Shown here: positions 2,915 through 54,483 of the stretch, one piece after another
Layout: every line of letters begins with the position of its first letter
How positions within the stretch are numbered: position 1 is the stretch's first letter
Origin: a bacterium
GTDB taxonomy: Bacteria; Patescibacteriota; Patescibacteriia; UBA10025
Reading direction: 5' to 3'
NCBI GenBank assembly: GCA_021815445.1
Contig: JAKAGM010000001.1
Span: 787,710 to 851,709, forward strand
DNA length: 64,000 nt
The notes under the pieces: model-generated
The model's input: the letters and a program-made list of their open reading frames with translations, nothing else
Told to the model about the DNA's origin: nothing
Databases searched by the model: none
Program-made: the position numbers and the translations under genes

Positions 2915-3925
2915 ATGCACAAAAAACCCGCTATTTCCGTAGTAATTCCTGCATTTAACGAAGAACGGTATCTCCGCGCGTGTTTATTGTCTTTGCGCCA
3001 GCAGGACATCGATGTGGAATATGAGCTTATTGTTGTCGATAACGGCAGTACTGATGCAACTGCGGATATTGCCCGTGAGTACGGAGCCCGTGTCGTGTTT
3101 GAACCGAGGAAGGGCATTTGCTATGCCAGGGAGGCGGGCACCAGGCAGGCGGAGGGTACTATCATTGTTTCCACTGACGCCGATTGTGTTACCCCTCGTG
3201 ACTGGCTTCAAAAAATCTATGATGCGTTTTTGATAGAACCGGAACTTGTCGGAGTTGCAGGCAGGATCCTTTATGAACCCAAACCCTTTTGGGGCAGAGC
3301 GTGGTCTCGGGGACTTTTCTGGGCGGTTGGTGCGTACTACAAGTTATTCGGCGTCGTCATGTATATCTCAGCGTGCAATTTTGCCTTCTCAAAGTGCGCA
3401 TGGGAAAAAGCGGGAGGATACAATGTTCGACTTGCCCAGGGCGGGGACGAGTACGACCTCTTATTCCGGCTGCGTTCTCAGGGCCATGTGGCATTCCTTC
3501 CTAATAATACTGCGCTCACCTCAAGCCGGCGTCTGGTGCATGGCATACTCTACAGCTTTTTTGTGACTGTGTGCTACTATTATCTTTTTGATTATTTTGT
3601 CCTCAGCCGTTTGACAGGACGCTCCGTCGCCGGCCTCTATCCTGAATTTCGGGGTGAGCAGCAATCACGGCTTCCGCTTTCGTCAAAGTTTGCGGTAGGC
3701 GCGTTAGTGATTCTTATCGGTTTTGGCATTGTACTGGGTTCTACGCCGTTGGCCAAAGCTACGCAGATTCCGCGGCACCAGCTTTCCGCGACGTTTCATA
3801 CCGCAAAAAATCATATTCAGCAATTTAATACTCATCTGGATTCGTGCACGGATAACCTCCCTGCGTGCACCATATCGGCGACGAGCAGGATGATACACTT
3901 TGCTGGACATCGGCGCGTCAGGTAA
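2915..3925 (+). CDS. Family 2 glycosyltransferase (GT-A fold) with a hydrophobic C-terminal region
   Basis: N-terminus ISVVIPAFNEERYL...IVVDNGSTDATADIA...STDADC is the classic GT2 pattern (DxD-like DAD). Confidence 0.8.
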   Translation: MHKKPAISVVIPAFNEERYLRACLLSLRQQDIDVEYELIVVDNGSTDATADIAREYGARVVFEPRKGICYAREAGTRQAEGTIIVSTDADCVTPRDWLQKIYDAFLIEPELVGVAGRILYEPKPFWGRAWSRGLFWAVGAYYKLFGVVMYISACNFAFSKCAWEKAGGYNVRLAQGGDEYDLLFRLRSQGHVAFLPNNTALTSSRRLVHGILYSFFVTVCYYYLFDYFVLSRLTGRSVAGLYPEFRGEQQSRLPLSSKFAVGALVILIGFGIVLGSTPLAKATQIPRHQLSATFHTAKNHIQQFNTHLDSCTDNLPACTISATSRMIHFAGHRRVR

Positions 3926-10442: not shown

Positions 10443-11237
10443 ATGAAGTTCCCTCGTCCAATTCGCACACTACGAAACAATGTATCGCCAGAAACTATTG
10501 CAAGTCAATTTCTCTTTCACGAATTCCTAAAAATCTTTCGCGACATCAGGGATCCACTCTTTCGACAGAGAATAAAAAGATCAATCTATCGGTTTAAAAA
10601 ACGCGACGGAGAACGCCACTACTGGCAGTTGGTAGCGGCAATTGCAGAGGGGTTGCGCGTCAAATGGGTGTATCGGTTACTTACCGATACGAGCTATAAA
10701 TGGAATCTCGAGGTGAGTGCGATAAAAAACCTCACAATGACTGGTTTTAGCCCGCTGGCAGTTGATAAAATTATACACCGATGCGGCCGTGATTTTTACC
10801 GATTCGCAGACTACTACCGCGCACATCTTCACTTCTTTAAAAAGTACATGCCGAACTTACAGCCGCGCCCCGAACGCGACATGCACCCCGTTTTCGTATT
10901 TTGGGATTCAGGGCAGAGACGACTGCGACTCTTTGACGGCATGCGACGCACAACGCTTGCCGCAATACACGGCAAAAAAACTATTAAGGCATTCGTCGGC
11001 TATCCCGTTAGAAAAGGCAAGTCCATGGTTAATGACGACAAGATTCACTTTTTCAAACTTTTATACAGAAATTCTTCAAAAGATGCCGCCACATTCAGGG
11101 CATTCACACGCGTGGGTAAAGAGATTGTAAAACAATCCCGCAACAGCGTAGAAGTGTTTACAACGACACTTAAGCCTTGGTCGGATATCCATGAAAAAAA
11201 ACTCACAAAGGCAATTATCGACAAAAGGGGGAGATAA
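10443..11237 (+). CDS. Hypothetical protein with a C-terminal ParB/Srx-like (DGxxR) motif
   Basis: 264 aa, basic. LRLFDGMRRTTLAAIHGKKTIKAFVGYP resembles the ParB N-terminal or DGQHR-type motif. Confidence 0.4.
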   Translation: MKFPRPIRTLRNNVSPETIASQFLFHEFLKIFRDIRDPLFRQRIKRSIYRFKKRDGERHYWQLVAAIAEGLRVKWVYRLLTDTSYKWNLEVSAIKNLTMTGFSPLAVDKIIHRCGRDFYRFADYYRAHLHFFKKYMPNLQPRPERDMHPVFVFWDSGQRRLRLFDGMRRTTLAAIHGKKTIKAFVGYPVRKGKSMVNDDKIHFFKLLYRNSSKDAATFRAFTRVGKEIVKQSRNSVEVFTTTLKPWSDIHEKKLTKAIIDKRGR

Positions 11238-11553
11238 TTTTTACCATCGCATTTACGGAATGGTAAAAGTAATTCCACCGGGTAAAGTCGCTACCTACGG
11301 TCAGATCGCCGCGCTTGCCGGATCTCCCCGCGGCGCCCGGATGGTGGGATGGGCGCTCCATGTACTCAGTGATGAACAACTCGTACATACTCCCTGGCAC
11401 CGCGTTATTAACCGCGAGGGACGGATTAGCACAACCTGTTTCGAACACACCTGCGACGAGCAAGCATTGCTTCTTAAAAAAGAGGGTGTTATAGTACGAA
11501 AAAGCAAAGGTAACTACTGGATTGACTTAAAACAGTTTCAGTGGAAAGTGTAG
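11191..11553 (+). CDS. Alkyltransferase-like protein (ATL; MGMT/Ogt DNA-binding domain with Trp replacing the active-site Cys)
   Basis: VATYGQIAALAGSPRGARMVGWALH...PWHRVINREG. PWHRV replaces the PCHRV motif of O6-alkylguanine-DNA alkyltransferases. The start is uncertain and could be the downstream MVKV. Confidence 0.7.
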   Translation: MKKNSQRQLSTKGGDNFYHRIYGMVKVIPPGKVATYGQIAALAGSPRGARMVGWALHVLSDEQLVHTPWHRVINREGRISTTCFEHTCDEQALLLKKEGVIVRKSKGNYWIDLKQFQWKV

Positions 11554-11567
11554 ATATAAGAATGCGG

Positions 11568-11638
11568 GCGGGTATCGTATAATGGTAATACCACAGCTTT
11601 CCAAGCTGTTGCCGGGGGTTCGATTCCCCCTACCCGCT
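11568..11638 (+). tRNA. tRNA-Gly(UCC), no encoded CCA
   Basis: Cloverleaf: acceptor GCGGGTA/TACCCGC, D-stem GTAT/ATAC, anticodon stem ACAGC/GCTGT with loop TTTCCAA, T-arm GGGGG-TTCGATT-CCCCC. Confidence 0.85.
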
Positions 11639-11792
11639 AATCAGCCTTACCAATAACTTTATAATATTCCCTGCCCACAGATCCCTTCAGACCAAGATGT
11701 TGGGGAAATCGAAGGACAGAAGTGAGCAAGGAATGAAATGACGAAGCGAACGTCGGCGGGGTGCCGGTGGCACGCCGCCGCTGTCCAGGACC

Positions 11793-11810
11793 CGATTCCC
11801 CCTACCCGCT
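11793..11810 (+). repeat. Direct repeat of the tRNA-Gly(UCC) 3' end (18 nt, cgattccccctacccgct)
   Basis: Exact copy of tRNA nt 11621..11638, about 170 nt downstream. A third partial copy (ccctacccgct) is at 12053..12063. Confidence 0.6.
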
Positions 11811-12233
11811 TTGTGGATCCAAATAATTCTACTGTTTCTTTAGTTGCGAGAGTACTAGCCGAAGATAGAGAATCGAAGGGGTGCGAACGGGGCAGAGCGA
11901 CTCAACTGCTTGAGTCGCGGCCGTGAGCACGGGTCGATCATGTTCTGAAGGAACGCGAGACCCAGGGAGAGTATGCATATACCACGCTGCCCAGGAAACG
12001 ATTCTTGAGTTCGATAAAATCTAACGGAACGAGACCCCGTTGAATAGCGGGACCCTACCCGCTCAGCGAATTTGCTCGCTGAGCGAGGCTCGCTACAAGC
12101 GTTAATTAATTCTACTCTCTTGAATATGTGCCCGAAAGAAATGGCATCTGTTTTGTTGGTATTTGGTTAAGTTTGAAATACATCCTTCGACTGACAATTT
12201 ATTAAATTTATCTGAATTATTTGTGAATATTAA

Positions 12234-12262
12234 TTGACAAAAAGCTGTTTTTTTGCTATACT
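12234..12262 (+). promoter_or_regulatory. Consensus sigma70 promoter of paralog A
   Basis: TTGACA, a 17-nt spacer, then TATACT. It is followed by a 26-nt A/T-rich leader with no SD. Confidence 0.6.
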
Positions 12263-12288
12263 GCATACATAATAAATAAATAAAAACT

Positions 12289-13767
12289 ATGTCCGACAAT
12301 ACTATCCAACAATGGCTTGCCCAAGCTCGAGCGGCCGGTTTTTCTGATGTGCAAATTACTGCACAGCTGAAACAGCAAGGCTGGGGCGATGATCAAATTC
12401 AAAAACTGGTTGGCGGCGCAACGTCACCTTCGGTAGCAACAGTTACCGATAGGAATCAAGTCGTTCCCTCTGATACTATTCCAGATGTACTGGCGTTATT
12501 TAAGCAAGCATGGGAAATATACAAATCCCGTATCGGAGCATTTGTTGTTATCGGCCTTATTTTTCTTTTCATAGAGGGACTATTGTACTTTGTGAGCTTC
12601 TTACTTGTCGGCGGAACTGCCGTGCTTGGCATCGCTTCATCCGCTACAGTATTTAAGGGCAACACGACTGCACAAATAGCCACCAGCGTTCTTGCTATCA
12701 GTTTCGCTTCCGTAGCTGTTACGGTAATTTTCGGTTTTTTCCTCGCTTGGGTGTGGTCAGCGTTGATCCATACAATTCACACATACAAAGAAAAGATTGA
12801 CCTCGGCACGATAATGTCCCGGGCGTTTAAGACGATGATTCCGCTTTGGTGGGTTTCAATGCTGTTGAGCTTTTTTGTCTCAGGTGCGAGTTTTCTGCTT
12901 TTTATTCCCGGCATCATTTTTGCCGTTTGGTTTTCAAATGCGCTTTTCTTGCCCGTCACTGAAGGTACGCGCGGCATGCAGTCACTGCTGAGAAGCAAAG
13001 AATATGTTCGAGGCGCTTGGTGGGGAGTGCTGGGCCGCCAGCTCGCCTTTGGATTGCTGGTCGGTGCGGCTTTCTTCGGCTTATTCCTCGTTTTAGGCCT
13101 GGGGACGATTTTTCTCCGTAATACTGCCGGAGCTATCGGGGCCATGGCGTCCATAGCGGTAACATTTGTCTACCTTGCAATTACTGCGCTCGTCATGCCT
13201 TTCGGACTTTGCTATTCATATGCTCTTTACAGCGGTTTAAGGGCATATAAAGCACGGGCTGCTATCGATACACAGCAAACAAAGAAAGCCGGGCTGATTA
13301 TCACAGCAATTGCGGGATGGCTGGTCATTCCTTTAATAGGAATTGGAATTGTTGCGTTTGTTACCAGCATGACTAACTCATTCCTGCCTGCATCGACTGG
13401 ATCAAATAATCTTTTTAACTCAAACAGCTCATACAACTTCAATACCAATAGTTTGAATAATACAAACAACAGTACAACGAGCGCAGGAAACAATGACCAA
13501 AGAAAAGCTGACCTCAATACCATTTCTGCCGCACTGGTGAAGTATTTCAATCAGCATTCCGCATATCCCACGGCCCTAACAGATATTGCGACATTGCTTC
13601 CAAACAGCAAGGTGCCCGCCGATCCATCTGATAATACGAGTTATTATTACTACATGAATTCCGACGGGACATTCGATCTCTGCGCGCTGCTAGATGATCC
13701 AACGACATACGTCAAGGAATACTGTATAAAGGGTGCCGCTGATGGAACGATCGCCATTCAACAGTAG
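12289..13767 (+). CDS. Multi-TM membrane protein, paralog A. It has a conserved N-terminal cytoplasmic domain and a C-terminal type IV pilin-like domain.
   Basis: N-terminus MSDNTIQQWLAQARAAGFSDVQITAQLKQQGWGDDQI is shared with the ORF at 14814..15602. About 8 TM helices follow. The C-terminus QRKADLNTISAALVKYFNQHSAYPTALTDI...VPADPSDNTSYYYY...DLCALLDD fits the pilin/pseudopilin globular-domain pattern. Confidence 0.7.
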   Translation: MSDNTIQQWLAQARAAGFSDVQITAQLKQQGWGDDQIQKLVGGATSPSVATVTDRNQVVPSDTIPDVLALFKQAWEIYKSRIGAFVVIGLIFLFIEGLLYFVSFLLVGGTAVLGIASSATVFKGNTTAQIATSVLAISFASVAVTVIFGFFLAWVWSALIHTIHTYKEKIDLGTIMSRAFKTMIPLWWVSMLLSFFVSGASFLLFIPGIIFAVWFSNALFLPVTEGTRGMQSLLRSKEYVRGAWWGVLGRQLAFGLLVGAAFFGLFLVLGLGTIFLRNTAGAIGAMASIAVTFVYLAITALVMPFGLCYSYALYSGLRAYKARAAIDTQQTKKAGLIITAIAGWLVIPLIGIGIVAFVTSMTNSFLPASTGSNNLFNSNSSYNFNTNSLNNTNNSTTSAGNNDQRKADLNTISAALVKYFNQHSAYPTALTDIATLLPNSKVPADPSDNTSYYYYMNSDGTFDLCALLDDPTTYVKEYCIKGAADGTIAIQQ

Positions 13768-19186: not shown

Positions 19187-19267
19187 GGTTTACTATATTA
19201 TTTTTTGAGGACTGGATTCCCCCTCCGGCGAGCCTCGCTTTGTCCGCTGTAAGCGGACAAAGCGGGA

Positions 19268-19296
19268 GACGGGATTCCCCTTCGGGCCGGGGCTCA
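19268..19296 (+). repeat. GC-rich repeat, copy c. It includes a 17-nt exact match (agcgggagacgggattc, 19254..19270) to the reverse complement of the tRNA-Gly(GCC) 3' end. A degenerate copy is at about 19208..19232.
   Basis: gtaagcggacaaagcgggagacgggattccccttcgggccggggctcac. Confidence 0.6.
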
Positions 19297-19475
19297 CGAT
19301 CGCCTCCGGTCTTCGACCCTGGGGTCTCAGACCCGAAGGGCGATATCGTTCGCCCTGCTCATCCCGACGCGACGCAAGCAGTTGCGTCGCTTCTCCTCCC
19401 GATTACTGGTTACTCCTTACAACGAGAATCTAGGAAACTTTTTTTACACTAATAGCTCCATCGAGCTGAGCTCGA

Positions 19476-20666: not shown

Positions 20667-22162
<1,496 letters not shown>

Positions 22163-37205: not shown

Positions 37206-37907
37206 CTACCAGCCCTTCACTTCAAGCGCTTTCTCGGCGGCGCGGACCTGCGCCTCCTGCTTTGACGTGCCTTCGCCCTCGGCGACCAGCTCTTCACCGA
37301 TGTAAATGCCGATGCGAAACTTGCGGGCGTGGTCGGGACCCGACTCGTGGAGGACCCTGTATGAAGGGGTGACGCCCGTGCGATCCTGCGAGGCCTCCTG
37401 GAAACGGCTCTTGGGATCCTGGTCGAGATGGTTTTCGAGAATACCTTTGAGATGATGGACAAGGTGTTTGACGAGGAAATCCCTTGCTACATCCCAGCCC
37501 AAATCAAGGTATATGGACCCGATAAGCGCTTCAAAGGCATCAGCGAGGATGAACATGCGCGCCTTGCTTTTCTTTTCTTTTTGCTCGCCGCGGCTTAGAT
37601 ACAGATAATGATCCAAGTCGAGCGTCCGCGCAATCTCCGCGAGCATCTTGGCATTGACGAGGCTCGCGCGCCAGTTAGTGAGATCGCCCTCGGGATTCGG
37701 GTACTGCTGGAAAAGGTATTCGGTCACTACCAGCTCGAGGACGGCATCACCGAGGAATTCGAGGCGCTCGTTGTTGTCGAGGCCGAACTTCGGGTGCTCA
37801 TTGAGGTACGATCGGTGAACCAAAGCCTGCCGCAACAGGTCTTTGTTGTTGAAGGTAAGACCGAGTTTTTCCTCCAGATGATCGAAATCCTTTTGGGAAG
37901 ATATCAT
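37206..37907 (-). CDS. rnc: Ribonuclease III
   Basis: ERLEFLGDAVLELVVTEYLF signature plus a C-terminal dsRBD. Confidence 0.9.
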   Translation of the reverse strand: MISSQKDFDHLEEKLGLTFNNKDLLRQALVHRSYLNEHPKFGLDNNERLEFLGDAVLELVVTEYLFQQYPNPEGDLTNWRASLVNAKMLAEIARTLDLDHYLYLSRGEQKEKKSKARMFILADAFEALIGSIYLDLGWDVARDFLVKHLVHHLKGILENHLDQDPKSRFQEASQDRTGVTPSYRVLHESGPDHARKFRIGIYIGEELVAEGEGTSKQEAQVRAAEKALEVKGW

Positions 37908-50326: not shown

Positions 50327-51853
50327 GTGTACAGGTATATGGATGTTAAAAAGCTCAACAAACTCTCCGCTCGTGTAAAGCGGAAAAAAGATTTTTCGTT
50401 TATCTCCGCCCTACAAAAAAGCTCTCCCAAGGCGGAAATTTTTCTCGTGGGCGGTATTATTCGCGACACGCTTCTCGGACGGGAATCAAAGGACTATGAT
50501 TTTGTGGTTCGGAATGTCCCCTTGCGAACGCTTCAACAGACGCTGAAAAAGCTGGGAACGGTGAATCTCGTCGGACGCACGTTCGGCGTCCTGAAGTTTC
50601 TGCCGAAACATGCGACGCTCGATGAACATATTGACATTGCGCTCCCCCGGACTGACTTTGCCTTCGGGAGCGGCGGGTATAAGGATGTCAAAACGCAGTC
50701 CAACCCGAAACTGGCAATTACCGATGACCTGTCACGAAGAGATTTCACCGTTAATGCAATGGCCTGGAACATGTCTCAGAAACTCTTAATAGACCCTCAT
50801 GGCGGGATGCGGGACCTGGAGCGGAAGGTAATCCGGACTGTCGGCGATCCTATAGAGCGATTCCACGAGGATTTCACGCGTATATTGAGATGCATACGGT
50901 TTTCTTGCCAGCTGGGATTTGAAATATATCCCAAAGTACTGCGCGCGGTTGCCAAGCTTGCCCGCCACCTGAAGGAACAGAGGGACGGTGTATTCATCGT
51001 ACCGCGAGAGATGGTCGCGCACGAACTGATAAAAGCTTTTGTAGCAGATCCTGTCCGAGCGCTCGATGTATGCGATGAAACTGGTATTGTTAACATTTTG
51101 ATGCCTGAACTGCTTACGATGAAAGGATGCCAGCAACCGAAAAACTTTCACCAGGAGGGGGATGTGTGGACACATACGCGTCTGGCGCTGTATATACTCA
51201 TGTCACCGCAGTACGTGAAGCAATTCGGCAAGGAGCACATAAACGCCGAAATTGTATTTGCCACTCTTTTTCATGACCTCGGCAAACCGTATACCATCCA
51301 GACGCCAAAAAAAGACCATACGGACAGGATACGGTTTAACAACCACGACGTGGTAGGCGCGGAAAAGGCCCTCGACATCATGAAACGCCTATCGTTTTCA
51401 GTCTTTCCTAAAACCAATGAGCGCCTGCACGTGGACCCTGACAACGTGGCGTGGATTGTCCGGCACCATCTCGTGGGATACCGCAATGATATCGATGCCA
51501 TGCGCGAGACGACGGTGGAAAAGTATTTCATCAGCGATCGCTTCCCTTCCCAAAGTCTGATTAAAGTGCAATACGCCGATACAGCCGCGACAATCCATGA
51601 CGACCGGAAAGTGGATTTTTCCAGCTTTCGGAAAATTCTCCGGCGGGTATCCGCGATAAAACGGAAAAGCGGAAATAAGAAATCAGCTCCCCCTCCCCTT
51701 GTCGACGGAAACGACGTGATGCAAGCTTTAAAAATACCCTCCGGTAAAGCCGTCGGGGAGTATCTCGAGAAAGTTCGCGAGGCGCAACTTGGCGGCAAGG
51801 TGAATACAAAGGCTCTCGCGCTGAGATGGCTTAAGAAATCTGCGCGCATATGA
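50327..51853 (+). CDS. cca: CCA-adding enzyme / tRNA nucleotidyltransferase (Pol-beta head plus HD domain)
   Basis: FLVGGIIRDTLLGRESKDYDFVV... nucleotidyltransferase head; HD motif FHDLGK. Confidence 0.8.
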   Translation: MYRYMDVKKLNKLSARVKRKKDFSFISALQKSSPKAEIFLVGGIIRDTLLGRESKDYDFVVRNVPLRTLQQTLKKLGTVNLVGRTFGVLKFLPKHATLDEHIDIALPRTDFAFGSGGYKDVKTQSNPKLAITDDLSRRDFTVNAMAWNMSQKLLIDPHGGMRDLERKVIRTVGDPIERFHEDFTRILRCIRFSCQLGFEIYPKVLRAVAKLARHLKEQRDGVFIVPREMVAHELIKAFVADPVRALDVCDETGIVNILMPELLTMKGCQQPKNFHQEGDVWTHTRLALYILMSPQYVKQFGKEHINAEIVFATLFHDLGKPYTIQTPKKDHTDRIRFNNHDVVGAEKALDIMKRLSFSVFPKTNERLHVDPDNVAWIVRHHLVGYRNDIDAMRETTVEKYFISDRFPSQSLIKVQYADTAATIHDDRKVDFSSFRKILRRVSAIKRKSGNKKSAPPPLVDGNDVMQALKIPSGKAVGEYLEKVREAQLGGKVNTKALALRWLKKSARI

Positions 51854-53601: not shown

Positions 53602-53860
53602 GATAGAATTCACCAAGGTACGCTAAAAGTGCAGGAATCCCACCGAGAGCACCAAGGGCAACTAATCCCGTTCCGCTATACGGAACGAGGATCTACGATC
53701 ACCGAAGGCGATTGGGACTCAGGTGGGTTCGAGCGGTATCCGCCTTTGCGGATAACGAGCAAACTGCTTTGCTTGCGACCGCGAGAACGGGCGGGCGATG
53801 TGAGCGCGAGCGAACCTGCTCGCCCAGGATAGAGCGTCTCGTTTACACCATAATCGATGA

Positions 53861-53934
53861 GGACGATTAGCTCAGTTGGTTAGAGCGTCTCGTTTACACC
53901 GAGAAGGTCGTAGGTTCGAGTCCTACATCGTCCA
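53861..53934 (+). tRNA. tRNA-Val(UAC), no CCA
   Basis: GGACGATTAGCTCAGTTGGTTAGAGCGTCTCGTTTACACCGAGAAGGTCGTAGGTTCGAGTCCTACATCGTCCA. Confidence 0.85.
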
Positions 53935-53955: not shown

Positions 53956-54210
53956 ATGAGATATTTTCTCGGCATCATATTTATCGGCATCGGTTTCCTC
54001 ATTGTATGGAAATCCGACTGGTTCATGGAGAATTTCGGAAGGATAGAATTCGCAGAAAAATACCTCGGCTCAGGCTGGGGCGGTACGCGTGTTTTTTACA
54101 AACTCTTAGGCATCCTGATCATCATTATTGCCTTTATGTACATGAGCGGCTTGCTTCAGTCCATCCTTGGCAGTATTTTCAGCCCTACCCGCAAGGTACT
54201 TTCACAGTAA
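53956..54210 (+). CDS. Small two-TM membrane protein (hypothetical)
   Basis: 84 aa, hydrophobic. Sits between tRNA genes. Confidence 0.35.
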   Translation: MRYFLGIIFIGIGFLIVWKSDWFMENFGRIEFAEKYLGSGWGGTRVFYKLLGILIIIIAFMYMSGLLQSILGSIFSPTRKVLSQ

Positions 54211-54407
54211 AACCAAGGGCCCTTAGCTTCCGCCAGCGGCGGACCCGCCTTTGACGGGCATTTGGGTCGAGTCAACAAGCGAACAGAACTGCTTCTGTTC
54301 GCGCGGGACGAGACGGGCTAAGCGATGTCTGGCGCAGCCAGACAGCGAAGCCCCGAAAGAGCGCCGCGTTTGTACCTTTGAATACGAATAGAATTGAATC
54401 CCTTTAT

Positions 54408-54483
54408 GGGCCCTTAGCTCATTTGGTAGAGCGCCGCGTTTGCAACGCGGAGGTGACCGGTTCGAGCCCGGTAGGGTCCACCA
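54408..54483 (+). tRNA. tRNA-Ala(UGC) with CCA
   Basis: GGGCCCTTAGCTCATTTGGTAGAGCGCCGCGTTTGCAACGCGGAGGTGACCGGTTCGAGCCCGGTAGGGTCCACCA. Confidence 0.9.

Follow-up and report, generated by a model that had tools for sequence, protein, structure and literature searches.

Probable tandem tRNA-linked structured RNA units downstream of tRNA-Gly(UCC) in a Patescibacteria genome

We propose, with fair confidence, that the non-coding tract downstream of tRNA-Gly(UCC) in the Patescibacteria window analyzed here (the whole stretch of 64,000 nucleotides) consists of two tRNA-linked structured RNA units in a short tandem array, situated in the 3' external spacer of this tRNA. In such an array, each unit would end in or contain a duplicate of the T-loop, T-stem and acceptor 3' strand of the tRNA. 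This duplicate would supply the 3' side of the basal helix H1 in unit 1, with the acceptor 3' strand and the discriminator left as a tail, and would close a small acceptor-like hairpin in unit 2. Because the tRNA-end copy is paired in H1 of the former and in the hairpin of the latter, we regard the repeats as working parts of folded RNAs, a claim that is part of the array reading and shares its likelihood. The tract probably represents tRNA-linked structured repeats of a kind already known, the RtT-like design, here in a new variant.

The tRNA-Gly(UCC) gene from which the repeated 3' end stems has the acceptor stem GCGGGUA/UACCCGC and the discriminator U73 at position 11638, and its CCA is not encoded. 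The 18-nt and 11-nt direct repeats of its 3' end reported in the preliminary description are real, exact and beyond chance. The 11-mer CCCTACCCGCT starts at 11628, 11800 and 12053, always on the + strand, and these three, all at the tRNA-Gly(UCC) locus, are its only exact copies in the 64 kb. When one mismatch at most was allowed, we found five matches versus 0.83 ± 0.88 in shuffles, and none of 100 shuffles reached five. Neither the 11-mer nor the 18-mer occurs at unrelated loci of the 64 kb; hence, the REP-like dispersal held up as the counter-explanation to att sites does not describe these repeats either. Each copy ends exactly at the discriminator and starts in the T-loop (position 56) or T-stem, the third one comprising the end of the T-stem, the acceptor 3' strand and the discriminator. 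The tRNA covariance model recognized only the real tRNA-Gly(UCC) between 11000 and 13000 at E <= 10, and the copies do not score; in the tRNA-locus tracts, tRNA pieces occur as gapped collinear chains only. The spacer 11639-11701 retains weak collinear traces of both the D arm and the anticodon arm (TAATA, CCACAG, CTT, ACCAAGATGT), and gapped local alignment to the cognate tRNA gives z = 10.8, a score supplied mostly by the exact 18-mer, versus z <= 1.7 for the nine other tRNAs.

The tract 11639-12288 as a whole divides into two discrete folded units, spacer sequence and a promoter region (Table 1). It had been described as hairpin-rich, and both hairpins quoted then are present (arms 11897-11905/11910-11918 and 12060-12069/12076-12085), but the tract is more than several hairpins in a row. 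The absence of genes between the repeats was likewise borne out, as no gene is called in 11553-12289 on the source contig, and so was the strong promoter of the downstream gene: TTGACA-17-TATACT at 12234-12262, with an upstream TG and 11/12 matches, precedes the ATG of the 492-aa gene at 12289. The G+C content amounts to 50-61% up to about 12100 and falls to 21-34% at the promoter. Our promoter/terminator scan found neither an intrinsic terminator on the + strand nor a strong promoter between tRNA-Gly(UCC) and 12234, and the tract is most probably co-transcribed with the tRNA. G.U pairs and tandem G.A render the unit structure strand-specific, and the fold z-scores across units and modules range from -2.2 to -5.1. 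The Rfam search advised in the preliminary description returned tRNA and no known family for the tract; E-value scans of three tRNA tracts and a gathering-score scan of the whole window detected only tRNAs and 16S rRNA, with no RtT, intron, ribozyme, YrlA or tmRNA.

Table 1. Features of the tRNA-Gly(UCC) tract and of related modules in the window (tRNA-Gly, tRNA-Val and tRNA-Ala loci).
Feature	Position	Strand	Remarks
tRNA-Gly(UCC), intact, source of the repeated 3' end	11568-11638	+	Rfam tRNA model 65.1 bits; ARAGORN 11567-11639
18-mer CGATTCCCCCTACCCGCT, tRNA-Gly(UCC) 3' end	11621-11638	+	source copy
Spacer between tRNA and unit 1	11639-11701	+	aligns with L070 spacer in the 250-nt, 73%-identity match
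Unit 1 (Gly-unit)	11702-11810	+	MFE and centroid folds, z = -2.2; model R1 103 bits
Unit 1, H1 5' arm = anti-T GGGGAAATCG	11702-11711	+	then AA
Unit 1, H2 5' strand GGACAG	11714-11719	+	
Unit 1, conserved single strand GGAATGAAATGACGAAGCGAACG	11730-11752	+	
Unit 1, H3 hairpin	about 11755-11779	+	
Unit 1, H2 3' strand CTGTCC	11781-11786	+	
Unit 1, AGGACC	11787-11792	+	
Second copy of tRNA-Gly(UCC) 3' end, 18 nt, tRNA positions 56-73	11793-11810	+	exact repeat D2
Unit 1, H1 3' arm CGATTCCCC = copy of tRNA T-loop and T-stem	11793-11801	+	
Unit 1, tail (C)TACCCGCT	to 11810	+	
Spacer between units 1 and 2	11811-11870	+	no match elsewhere in the window
Unit 2 (c1)	11871-12063, 3' extension to 12095	+	fold z = -2.5; helices checked against five other modules
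Unit 2, AATCGAAGG motif	within 11871-12063	+	
Unit 2, P0 with tandem G.A, GTGC-GA-ACGG/CCGT-GA-GCAC	11881-11890/11921-11930	+	
Unit 2, GGGCAG with CTGCCC-AGGAA	11890-11895 with 11988-11998	+	
Unit 2, P1 hairpin GCGACTC-AACTGCTT-GAGTCGC	11897-11918	+	
Unit 2, P2 GGGTC..GACCC, then AGGG	11931-11963	+	
Unit 2, AGCGGG-ACCCTA-CCCGCT, acceptor-like small hairpin formed by the third tRNA-end copy	12046-12063	+	
Third copy of tRNA-Gly(UCC) 3' end, 11 nt	12053-12063	+	exact repeat D1
Unit 2, 3' extension hairpin CGCTCAGCGA/TCGCTGAGCG	12060-12085	+	inverted repeat I7; fold z = -4.5 for 12040-12095
Unit 2, 3' extension palindromic motif GCGAGGCTCGC	12083-12093	+	
A+T-rich stretch with the promoter of the 492-aa gene that follows, outside the units	12096-12288	+	promoter scan and composition
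Unit c2, paralogue of unit 2	19212-19412	-	downstream of tRNA-Gly(GCC) (19550-19479)
c2, P1 GCGACGC-AACTGCTT-GCGTCGC	19390-19369	-	
c2, 17-nt copy of tRNA-Gly(GCC) 3' end	19277-19261	-	
c2, hairpin, then GCGAGGCTCGC	motif 19238-19228	-	
Module c3 (AACTGCTT) in D-loop of partial 5' copy of tRNA-Val(UAC)	53709-53849	+	
Module c4 (AACTGCTT) in D-loop of 5'-half copy of tRNA-Ala(UGC)	54217-54372	+	z = -5.1

The basal helix of unit 1, in which GGGGAAATCG pairs with CGATTCCCC in both the MFE and centroid folds, covaries with relative L060, and its anti-T arm follows the local tRNA (GGGGAAATCG/CGATTCCCC in the window versus GGAGTCG/CGACTCC in L060). The covariance model of this unit (R1) scores 76-126 bits in L060, L065-68 and L070. 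In the alignment, which is small (six sequences of four lineages), 91% of cells pair, as compared with 27-49% in slid controls, and seven pairs change on both sides, an extent attained by one of 500 shuffles; covariation statistics from alignments of this size are suggestive rather than conclusive. Conserved single-stranded blocks lie beside stems which evolve fast and are always paired.

Unit 1 is present downstream of tRNA-Gly(UCC) also in three other Patescibacteria lineages. The tRNA-unit arrangement comprises two units in L060/L061 and one in L068/L070/L071, and it was detected in L065-67 as well. At a 16S identity of only 85.7% between the window and L068, where the downstream protein is merely 34% identical, the tRNA, spacer and unit still align at 73% over 250 nt. 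We found no such tract downstream of tRNA-Gly(UCC) in L005, L006 and L063, so it is dispensable or lineage-specific. The identity of the tRNA copy reaches past the mature end (CCA+GG in L070, TGTA in L060), which fits duplication or conversion at the DNA level better than pure selection at the RNA level. In L066, the unit's copy mismatches the adjacent intact tRNA. L065/L067 have no tRNA within 780 nt upstream of the unit; its surroundings differ there, and the homology begins at GCTCCA. Some tRNA-derived pieces at other loci are degenerate, such as the 5' tRNA-Val copy of L068, and neutral decay may account for part of the pattern. A protein search of genome contigs with the flanking PEP-utilizer retrieved three distant and uninformative loci, with no elements.

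Direct repeats that lie downstream of an intact tRNA gene and run from the T-loop to the tRNA 3' end resemble att sites, and the preliminary description ascribed them to att duplication by tRNA-targeting elements since decayed or excised. The copies would then be attR-type remnants of two successive integrations, the elements being either eroded to about 150-250 bp or miniature and mobilized by an integrase acting in trans from another locus. We consider this very unlikely, even though the stretch from T-loop to tRNA 3' end is the classical sublocation of the tyrosine-integrase crossover, the identity in L070 and L060 extends 2-4 nt past the mature end, the unit number varies by lineage (0, 1 or 2) and L065/L067 carry the unit, from GCTCCA onward, in another context. 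Among the called genes of about 52 kb (~5-57 kb of the window), no integrase, recombinase or transposase was identified by Pfam families. The inter-repeat segments of about 150-240 bp, expected to carry variable cargo, are conserved and folded: the ~110-nt "remnant" represented by unit 1 retains covarying stems at 86% 16S identity. Moreover, the repeat is base-paired with anti-T inside the unit, and the sequences right after each repeat copy are unrelated to one another. As for a matching attP, IMG/VR viral contigs yielded none that is integrase-linked and carries this core. The 18-mer scan gave 18 loci, 14 of them phage tRNA-Gly genes and four stand-alone, about the number estimated for chance; one of the latter, inspected individually, is flanked by genes for an HNH endonuclease and a small terminase, with no integrase adjacent. 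The viral scans, for the 18-mer as well as for the unit junction, returned phage tRNA-Gly genes and chance matches only. Matches in L069, L091 and L092 were discarded as chance hits inside a high-G+C coding region. The earlier fallback, "satellite array", came close, given a short tandem array of tRNA-linked units like that of the E. coli tyrT/RtT locus; "decayed or excised elements" found no support.

Unit 2 closes differently from unit 1, by UCGAAGGGG/CCCCGUUGA and a separate acceptor-like hairpin. Since model R1 gives no significant match on c1 or c2, these two constitute a subfamily apart from unit 1. They share homology to either side of the tRNA piece, and the piece itself matches the local tRNA. 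Their homology continues past the distal repeat into the hairpin and GCGAGGCTCGC, with a 12-nt exact match of 12082-12093 to 19239-19228, which argues against attR, where unrelated host flank would begin. The AACUGCUU module, composed of the tandem-GA helix and a hairpin with the loop AACUGCUU, is found in six copies in three genomes with six different, fully paired P1 stems; P0 and P2 covary too, and every copy has, on its own strand, a neighboring tRNA gene or tRNA-like copy. Within the 64 kb, the AACTGCTT hairpin occurs four times, each beside a tRNA. Module c3 includes a 20-nt exact tRNA fragment (53830-53849) and ends 11 nt upstream of the real tRNA-Val(UAC) (53861-53934). In c4, tRNA positions 1-12 lie at 54217-54228, 13-19 at 54259-54265 and 20-35 at 54357-54372, exact for positions 21-35 (54358-54372), and the real tRNA-Ala(UGC) (54408-54480) follows after 35 nt. 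The AACTGCTT hairpin pattern gave 49 matches in viral sequences, two of which form hairpins, neither with the downstream motifs, i.e., chance level. Simple tandem duplication (spacer and 5' half) upstream of tRNA-Ala was rejected, the two spacers being unrelated, and a P1-P2 loop-loop contact via CUGC/GCAG was dropped as it was found in c4 only.

The collinear and partly degenerate chains of tRNA pieces in the tracts could also be neutral debris, that is, decaying tandem tRNA duplicates invaded by G+C-rich palindromic (REP/MITE-like) hairpins, whose exact 3' ends survive only via gene conversion with the live tRNA. Such an origin would agree with the small hairpins TCCGCC..GGCGGA and CCCGCC..GGCGGG that recur around many tRNAs, with clearly degenerate copies like that of tRNA-Val in L068 and with the patchy presence among relatives. 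Yet, the genome is streamlined (a single ~880-kb contig), and the genes annotated over ~52 kb are all ordinary cellular ones; unit 1 persists across order-level divergence, the module helices covary, and the modules are not dispersed but all sit, in the same orientation, beside tRNA genes or tRNA-like copies. We therefore regard debris as an improbable explanation.

Equally improbable in our view are selfish loop-targeting or intron-like elements that insert into the D-loop (after G18G19) or T-loop of tRNA copies, where the disrupted copy persists beside an intact one and the insertions may be removed from the RNA or result in split yet functional tRNAs. The AACTGCTT module does occupy the same D-loop position in copies of four different tRNAs (Ala, Val-UAC, Val-GAC and Phe-like), with the boundaries ..TGG|G(T)YCG.. 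and ..CC(N)RGRA|(T)AGAGC, and unit 1 is placed where the T-loop would be. Furthermore, tRNA-Phe in all relatives and tRNA-Pro in L068 are nested within an interrupted outer self-copy, and c1/c2 look like a recent within-genome duplication. However, no known bacterial machinery splices such insertions, Rfam at E <= 10 gives neither group I or II introns nor ribozymes, and most disrupted copies are devoid of half of the tRNA and hence make no tRNA on their own; near-identical dispersed copies and an associated protein gene are also missing. A broader version, to which we grant slightly more but still little likelihood, is that Patescibacteria place modules in the elbow loops (the D-loop after G18G19 and the T-loop) of extra tRNA copies and so build expanded or nested precursors. 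If true, this would mean a new loop-targeting mobile or intron-like class in bacteria, or split-tRNA-like or maturation-regulating precursors; in the case of regulation, anti-T pairing would compete with the T-arm of the tRNA itself. The tRNA-Gly(UCC) tract would then belong to a genome-wide system instead of being a local oddity.

Several other candidates were discarded. ARAGORN finds no tmRNA or permuted tmRNA. T-boxes, which contain no tRNA copy, have no Rfam match here, and hammerhead, twister and other ribozymes lack both an Rfam match and their core motifs. Integron attC-like sites share the stem/internal loop/stem/variable-hairpin shape, but R-box triplets and an integrase are absent. 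IS200/IS605-type miniature elements were dropped as there are no multiple near-identical copies.

The tandem array of structured units finds its closest counterpart in the RtT repeats of Escherichia coli. In a check on E. coli K-12, RF00391 gave four matches around tyrT/tyrV with 178-nt spacing and 133-138 bits. We located six copies of the 19-nt AATCCTTCCCCCACCACCA, the tRNA-Tyr 3' end, with which each RtT unit ends, and the 5' GGGGAAGGAT of the unit pairs with the tRNA-end copy (MFE helix GGGGAAGGAT/ATCCTTCCCC). The rttR RNA derives from one repeat unit of the tyrT locus (PMC3318445), and the function of the E. coli RtT analogue is unsettled (10.1101/2024.07.17.603846). As in RtT, the units here are arranged in tandem downstream of a tRNA and co-oriented with it (11702-11810 and 11871-12095, + strand), repeat the tRNA 3' terminus exactly at their own 3' end (18 and 11 nt here, 19 nt in E. 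coli) and possess G+C-rich internal hairpins; in unit 1, the 5' part is complementary to the copy and forms the basal helix, with the acceptor 3' strand as a tail. In contrast to RtT, the host belongs to Patescibacteria and not to Enterobacteria, the tRNA is Gly and not Tyr, the two units represent different subfamilies rather than near-identical repeats, no tpr-like ORF is present, and the AACUGCUU module subfamily is found also upstream of other tRNAs, within 5' tRNA copies whose D-loops it occupies. Sequence or covariance-model similarity was not detectable: RF00391 has no match at E <= 10 in 11000-13000, nor at gathering score in the whole window, and R1 reaches only 3-6 bits on the RtT units. 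As this is no significant match, RtT is an analogue and not a detectable homologue.

Two further systems invite comparison. In E. coli, the 3' external transcribed spacer of glyW-cysT-leuZ is an sRNA sponge and, as such, a functional by-product of the transcription and processing of a tRNA operon; that spacer is short, base-pairs with sRNAs and, unlike the units here, is not known to contain a tRNA-end copy. Disrupted tRNA genes of archaea and red algae likewise bear structured insertions at the D-, anticodon- and T-loop and have pieces spread across one locus. In contrast to them, the host here is a bacterium, an intact copy of each tRNA stands alongside and many copies are incomplete. By eye, no bulge-helix-bulge was evident at the junctions examined, and the window showed no splicing endonuclease gene. 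Genes for RNase III and the CCA-adding enzyme are located in it. Literature searches covering tRNA fragments, introns or insertions in CPR/Patescibacteria brought up no account of these elements.

The tRNA-linked units probably originated when part of the tRNA gene was duplicated in tandem and structured modules then inserted into its loops, and gene conversion or selection may have kept the copies matched to the neighboring tRNA. By analogy with RtT, the units may be processed, i.e., cut from the tRNA precursor as stable small RNAs, or may guide its processing, and a cellular role of this sort is conceivable.

Direct repeats of tRNA 3' ends are routinely read as att sites. The present locus together with tyrT of E. 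coli would provide a second origin for them, which implies false positives in genomic-island hunts. The occurrence of the RtT design (anti-T arm, internal hairpins and tRNA-end copy) so far from Enterobacteria points to an ancient origin or repeated invention. The Gly-unit and the AACUGCUU module are at least two candidate new RNA families, and the nested or interrupted copies around tRNA-Phe, Pro, Ile, Val and Ala suggest an unusual tRNA precursor architecture in Patescibacteria. That 450-650 bp of folded non-coding sequence are kept at several tRNA loci in genomes under strong reduction argues for a function, and the tRNA-Gly(UCC) units would offer a second system for asking what RtT-type RNAs do.

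The tRNA-Gly(UCC) gene lies 14 nt downstream of an MGMT-family stop codon, on a source contig (~877–881 kb) of the Patescibacteria (CPR); the closest homologues of the MGMT-family protein, named Patescibacteria or Kerfeldbacteria, are only 71% identical. The ARAGORN and Rfam boundaries of the tRNA are offset by a single base at either end; with those of Rfam, the tRNA has the standard G1-C72 pair and a U73 discriminator. CCA is not encoded here, nor in the window tRNAs Phe, Ile(UAU), Val(UAC) and both Leu; it is encoded in Gly(GCC), Ile(GAU), Val(GAC) and Ala(UGC). Relatives with a CCA-encoding tRNA-Gly(UCC) also carry CCA in the unit copy. We confirmed the repeats of the preliminary description, i.e., an exact direct copy of the last 18 nt of the tRNA (CGATTCCCCCTACCCGCT) and an exact 11-nt core (CCCTACCCGCT), together with the gene-free state of the segments between them (no call on the source contig from 11553 to 12289) and the strong promoter before the downstream gene. 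Every repeat copy ends exactly at the discriminator base. The 64 kb hold no further exact copies; with one mismatch allowed there are five matches against 0.83 expected, a count reached in 0 of 100 shuffles. A 10-nt match to the tRNA-Gly(UCC) end at 54183–54192, inside an 84-aa hydrophobic ORF with no Pfam match, was judged to be chance.

Features of the tRNA-linked tracts in the window and in comparison loci (prefix L; own coordinates)
Feature	Location	Strand	Basis or remark
tRNA-Gly(UCC)	11568-11638	+	Rfam, 65 bits
tRNA-Gly(UCC), alternative ends	11567-11639	+	ARAGORN
Second copy, last 18 nt	11793-11810	+	exact repeat
Third copy, 11-nt core	12053-12063	+	exact repeat
Promoter TTGACA-17-TATACT	12234-12262	+	promoter scan
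AACTGCTT hairpin	11897-11918	+	inside unit 2 of tRNA-Gly(UCC) tract
AACTGCTT hairpin	19390-19369	-	c2
AACTGCTT hairpin	53756-53775	+	beside tRNA
AACTGCTT hairpin	54279-54302	+	beside tRNA
Palindromic 11-mer GCGAGGCTCGC, c1	12083-12093	+	identical match
Palindromic 11-mer GCGAGGCTCGC, c2	19238-19228	-	identical match
tRNA-Gly(GCC)	19550-19479	-	17-nt copy of own 3' end downstream, 19277-19261
Second tRNA-Phe-like unit	19880-19560	-	also L060 8490-8795
Nested tRNA-Phe	20290-19880	-	intact tRNA 20100-20029; also L005 15640-15283, L006 6230-6440, L057 7312-7742, L060 8193-8475
tRNA-Phe flanking helix	20124-20101 + 20027-20017	-	also L006 6286-6304 + 6378-6392; L060 8239-8264 + 8339-8350; L068 3221-3233 + 3308-3320
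16S rRNA gene	20668-22162	-	
RNase III gene	37206-37907		
CCA-adding enzyme gene	50327-51853		PolyA_pol + HD
84-aa ORF	53956-54210		called gene, between tRNA-Val(UAC) and tRNA-Ala element
Gly-unit after minihelix-like 3' half	L066 1-334		oriented
Gly-unit without nearby tRNA	L065 556-901		oriented
tRNA-Pro copies	L068 3467-3696		tRNA-Pro 3506-3583
tRNA-Ile(GAU) self-copies	L057 7076-7176; L068 2747-2828; L006 5846-5950		

Two folded, co-oriented units lie 3' of the tRNA, and in them the tRNA-end copy is a helix strand. We read the tract, with moderate confidence, as a set of structured tRNA-linked RNA units resembling the RtT repeats of E. coli. The order MGMT-tRNA-Gly(UCC) is conserved in three comparison loci (L005, L006 and L063), where the tract behind the tRNA is absent. 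Two NCBI MAGs (L060/L061) have the tRNA 3' end twice more downstream of the gene (ACTCCCCTTACCCGCT+TGTA and CGACTCCCCTTACCCGCT), and a metagenome scan with the junction pattern CCAGGACNCGAYTCCNNNTACCCGCT returned six true matches in two further lineages and one chance match. All these units share one plan: an anti-T arm, AA, helix H2, a single strand, hairpin H3, AGGAC-N and the tRNA-end copy. The anti-T arm, which reads GGGGAA(A)TCG in the window and GGAGTCG in L060, is reverse-complementary to the local tRNA over its T-loop and T-stem 3' strand, H2 is GGACAG/CTGTCC in the window and GGGCAG/CTGCCC elsewhere, the single-stranded block CGAAGCGAACG is conserved, and the H3 stem varies freely in sequence while its pairing is kept. 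In an alignment of six sequences 91% of cells are paired (27–49% in slid controls) and seven pairs are altered on both sides, which 1 of 500 shuffles attains; the covariance model built from it scores 76–126 bits on all members and otherwise yields only weak matches on the tRNAs themselves. Judged by these alignments, the units show deep conservation and covariation.

The nearest orthologous locus (L068/L070) consists of a tRNA-Gly with a single unit behind it, then a promoter and a gene distantly homologous to the downstream gene of the window. The tRNA, spacer and unit are 73% identical to the window over 250 nt despite 85.7% identity of 16S rRNA (the downstream protein is 34% identical), and neutral sequence would not have survived at this distance; that the tract is neutral debris, tRNA duplicates with hairpin insertions, is improbable. 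Elsewhere, in L066, a Gly-unit stands 3' of a minihelix-like 3' half (GCGGGAC..GGGGGTTCGATTCCCCCTACCCGCTCCA) that differs from the adjoining intact tRNA-Gly(UCC) (..CGCCCGCTCCA). In the sister contigs L065/L067 the Gly-unit may be an independent gene, since no tRNA lies within 780 nt upstream and an apparent TTCAAA-17-TATAAA promoter, found by eye, precedes it.

The E. coli tyrT locus, whose 178-bp repeats include the tRNA-Tyr 3' end, offers a parallel. In K-12, the annotated sRNA rttR and tpr come after tyrT and tyrV; repeats occur at 178-nt spacing, with four RF00391 units detected by Rfam. The final 19 nt of tRNA-Tyr, present six times in all, form the end of each unit, and in the MFE fold the unit's 5' GGGGAAGGAT pairs with ATCCTTCCCC of the tRNA-Tyr copy, leaving CACCACCA as a tail. 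The design is that of unit 1: a 5' arm paired with the tRNA-end copy and a tail left over. PMC3318445 (citing Bösl and Kersten, 1991) describes rttR as the RNA product of one tyrT repeat unit; it is said to take part in tyrT transcript processing and perhaps the stringent response, its mode of action not being established (10.1101/2024.07.17.603846). As RF00391 has no match in the window and our unit 1 model scores only 3–6 bits on RtT units, the relation is one of architecture, not demonstrable homology.

Unit 2 contains a different module, a hairpin with the loop AACTGCTT, and each of its four occurrences in the window lies beside a tRNA, on that tRNA's strand. Two more were found upstream of tRNA-Val(GAC) in L068 and inside a tRNA-Phe-like copy in L060. 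The six P1 stems (GCGACTC, GCGACGC, CGAGCA, GCGAACAG, GCAAAGTA and GTGAAGC) are all different and all fully paired. P1 is enclosed in five of six copies by a helix P0 with a tandem mismatch (G.A in four, GC/GA in L068), e.g., GUGC-GA-ACGG with CCGU-GA-GCAC or GUUC-GA-GCGGU with ACCGC-GA-GAAC. It is followed by hairpin P2 (GGGC..GCCC) and then directly by AGG(G/A) or TGGA in four of six, and by CGAA, CGGA or another hairpin in the rest. Fold z-scores range from -2.5 to -5.1. Given its G.U pairs and tandem G.A the structure is strand-specific, which suggests RNA, or at any rate a single strand. The module occupies an identical D-loop position in the Val, Ala and Phe-like copies, 3' of G18G19 and 5' of the D-stem 3' strand. 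Loop-targeting selfish or intron-like modules are an unlikely alternative explanation of the tract.

Comparing k-mers of each of the ten window tRNAs with its own surroundings, we found that fragments of a tRNA commonly adjoin that very tRNA. Besides tRNA-Gly(GCC), tRNA-Val(UAC) has a 20-nt copy of positions 21–40 upstream, tRNA-Ala(UGC) has copies of positions 1–12, 13–19 and 21–35 upstream, and tRNA-Phe has own fragments on both sides. By gapped alignment every tract resembles only its cognate tRNA, with z = 5.4–10.8 in six of eight tract-tRNA pairs, much of the score coming from exact fragments; UCC segment 2 and the second downstream tract of tRNA-Phe score lowest (z = 2.6–3.8), with a small margin over other tRNAs.

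Unit 2 (c1) and its paralogue behind tRNA-Gly(GCC) (c2) are homologous on either side of the tRNA piece: on the left P1, GAGCA-GGG, P2 and GAGACCC-AGGG, on the right a hairpin and then the identical 11-mer GCGAGGCTCGC. The piece itself is of Gly(UCC) type in c1 and Gly(GCC) type in c2. The 11-mer follows the tRNA-end copy by ~20–25 nt in both, just 3' of the hairpin; its 3' half pairs in c1 with UAGCGGG at 12045–12051 (MFE fold), and the motif may bind a protein or belong to a closing helix. The preliminary description had taken the repeats for att-site duplications by integrative elements, which we regard as very unlikely: the DNA between the repeats is a conserved folded sequence instead of cargo, the repeat itself pairs as one strand of the unit, and the c1/c2 homology runs past the tRNA piece, whereas the host flank of an attR would start directly after the repeat. 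The suggested searches for integrases and a matching attP core likewise gave no support. Recombinase genes are absent from the region: no integrase, recombinase or transposase is among the called genes from ~5 to 57 kb of the window, all of them unannotated ORFs or ordinary cellular genes with mostly housekeeping roles. In IMG/VR the 18-mer matched phage tRNA-Gly genes and a few stand-alone sites, at about the estimated chance number, the one examined being flanked by genes for an HNH endonuclease and a small terminase. Events at the DNA level do fit some observations: sequence identity that continues for 2–4 nt beyond the mature tRNA end (L070 and L060), the variable unit number between lineages, and the placement of the units in L065/L067 and L066. 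We read these observations as partial duplication, gene conversion and rearrangement on an RNA-coding locus, not integrase scars.

We also observed nested arrangements. An intact tRNA-Phe sits within an outer, interrupted tRNA-Phe copy, composed of the 5' acceptor and D arm upstream and of the anticodon arm, T-arm 3' strand and acceptor 3' strand downstream, with hairpin insertions separating these parts. The window has the acceptor stems GCCGAGG/CCTCGGC (outer) and GCCTGGG/CCCAGGC (inner). The non-tRNA inserts are roughly 85% identical (by eye) to those of L060, with compensatory changes (CAAUUUUUC/GAAAAAUUG versus CGAUUUUCU/AGAAAAUCG). A leader-trailer helix of 12–13 bp flanks tRNA-Phe and covaries across genomes (TCCCGCAtATGTG/CATgTGCGGGA; TCCCGTATTTAT/ATAAATACGGGA; TTCTTCCACACAA/TTGTGTGGAAGAA); it looks like the processing stem cut by RNase III in rRNA operons, and the window has an RNase III gene. 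A second, more degenerate expanded tRNA-Phe-like unit (ACCGAGGTAGCGAAGTGG.., CTCCGGACTGAAATGCC.., CGTCGCCAGTT..) follows in tandem and in L060 carries the AACTGCTT-type module in its D-loop. The 16S rRNA gene precedes tRNA-Ile(GAU), the tRNA-Phe complex, tRNA-Gly(GCC) and a protein gene; no 23S rRNA was found near it, so the rRNA genes are unlinked. The Ile-Phe order on the 16S side is kept in L006, L057 and L060. In L068, positions 1–13 of tRNA-Pro are copied upstream of it, and two small hairpins (TCTGCC..GGCAGA, CCCGCC..GGCGGG) and a perfect 59-nt copy of positions 19–77 lie on its 3' side, so that a full tRNA interrupts an identical outer copy at its D-loop. For tRNA-Ile(GAU), L057 repeats positions 30–58 and 57–75 downstream, and L068 repeats a piece of the anticodon arm together with the final 19 nt; L006 has an upstream 5' copy whose D-loop holds two hairpin insertions.

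Within the tract neither a + strand terminator nor a strong promoter was found. On the RtT-like reading, the tract would be transcribed with tRNA-Gly as its 3' external spacer, and tRNA-processing nucleases would release or shape the units. Their tRNA-like end may provide a defined or protected 3' terminus, or else the anti-T arm may base-pair with the T-arm of the tRNA itself. Repeats of this kind, linked to a tRNA and each with a tRNA-end copy, are already known in Enterobacteria. New here are their presence in Patescibacteria, two unrelated unit families absent from Rfam, the form in which one family is inserted into D-loops and the wider pattern of nested or interrupted tRNA copies. The unit families, known from small alignments (6 sequences), are good candidates for new RNA families, and the finding corrects the standard misreading of tRNA-end repeats as att sites.
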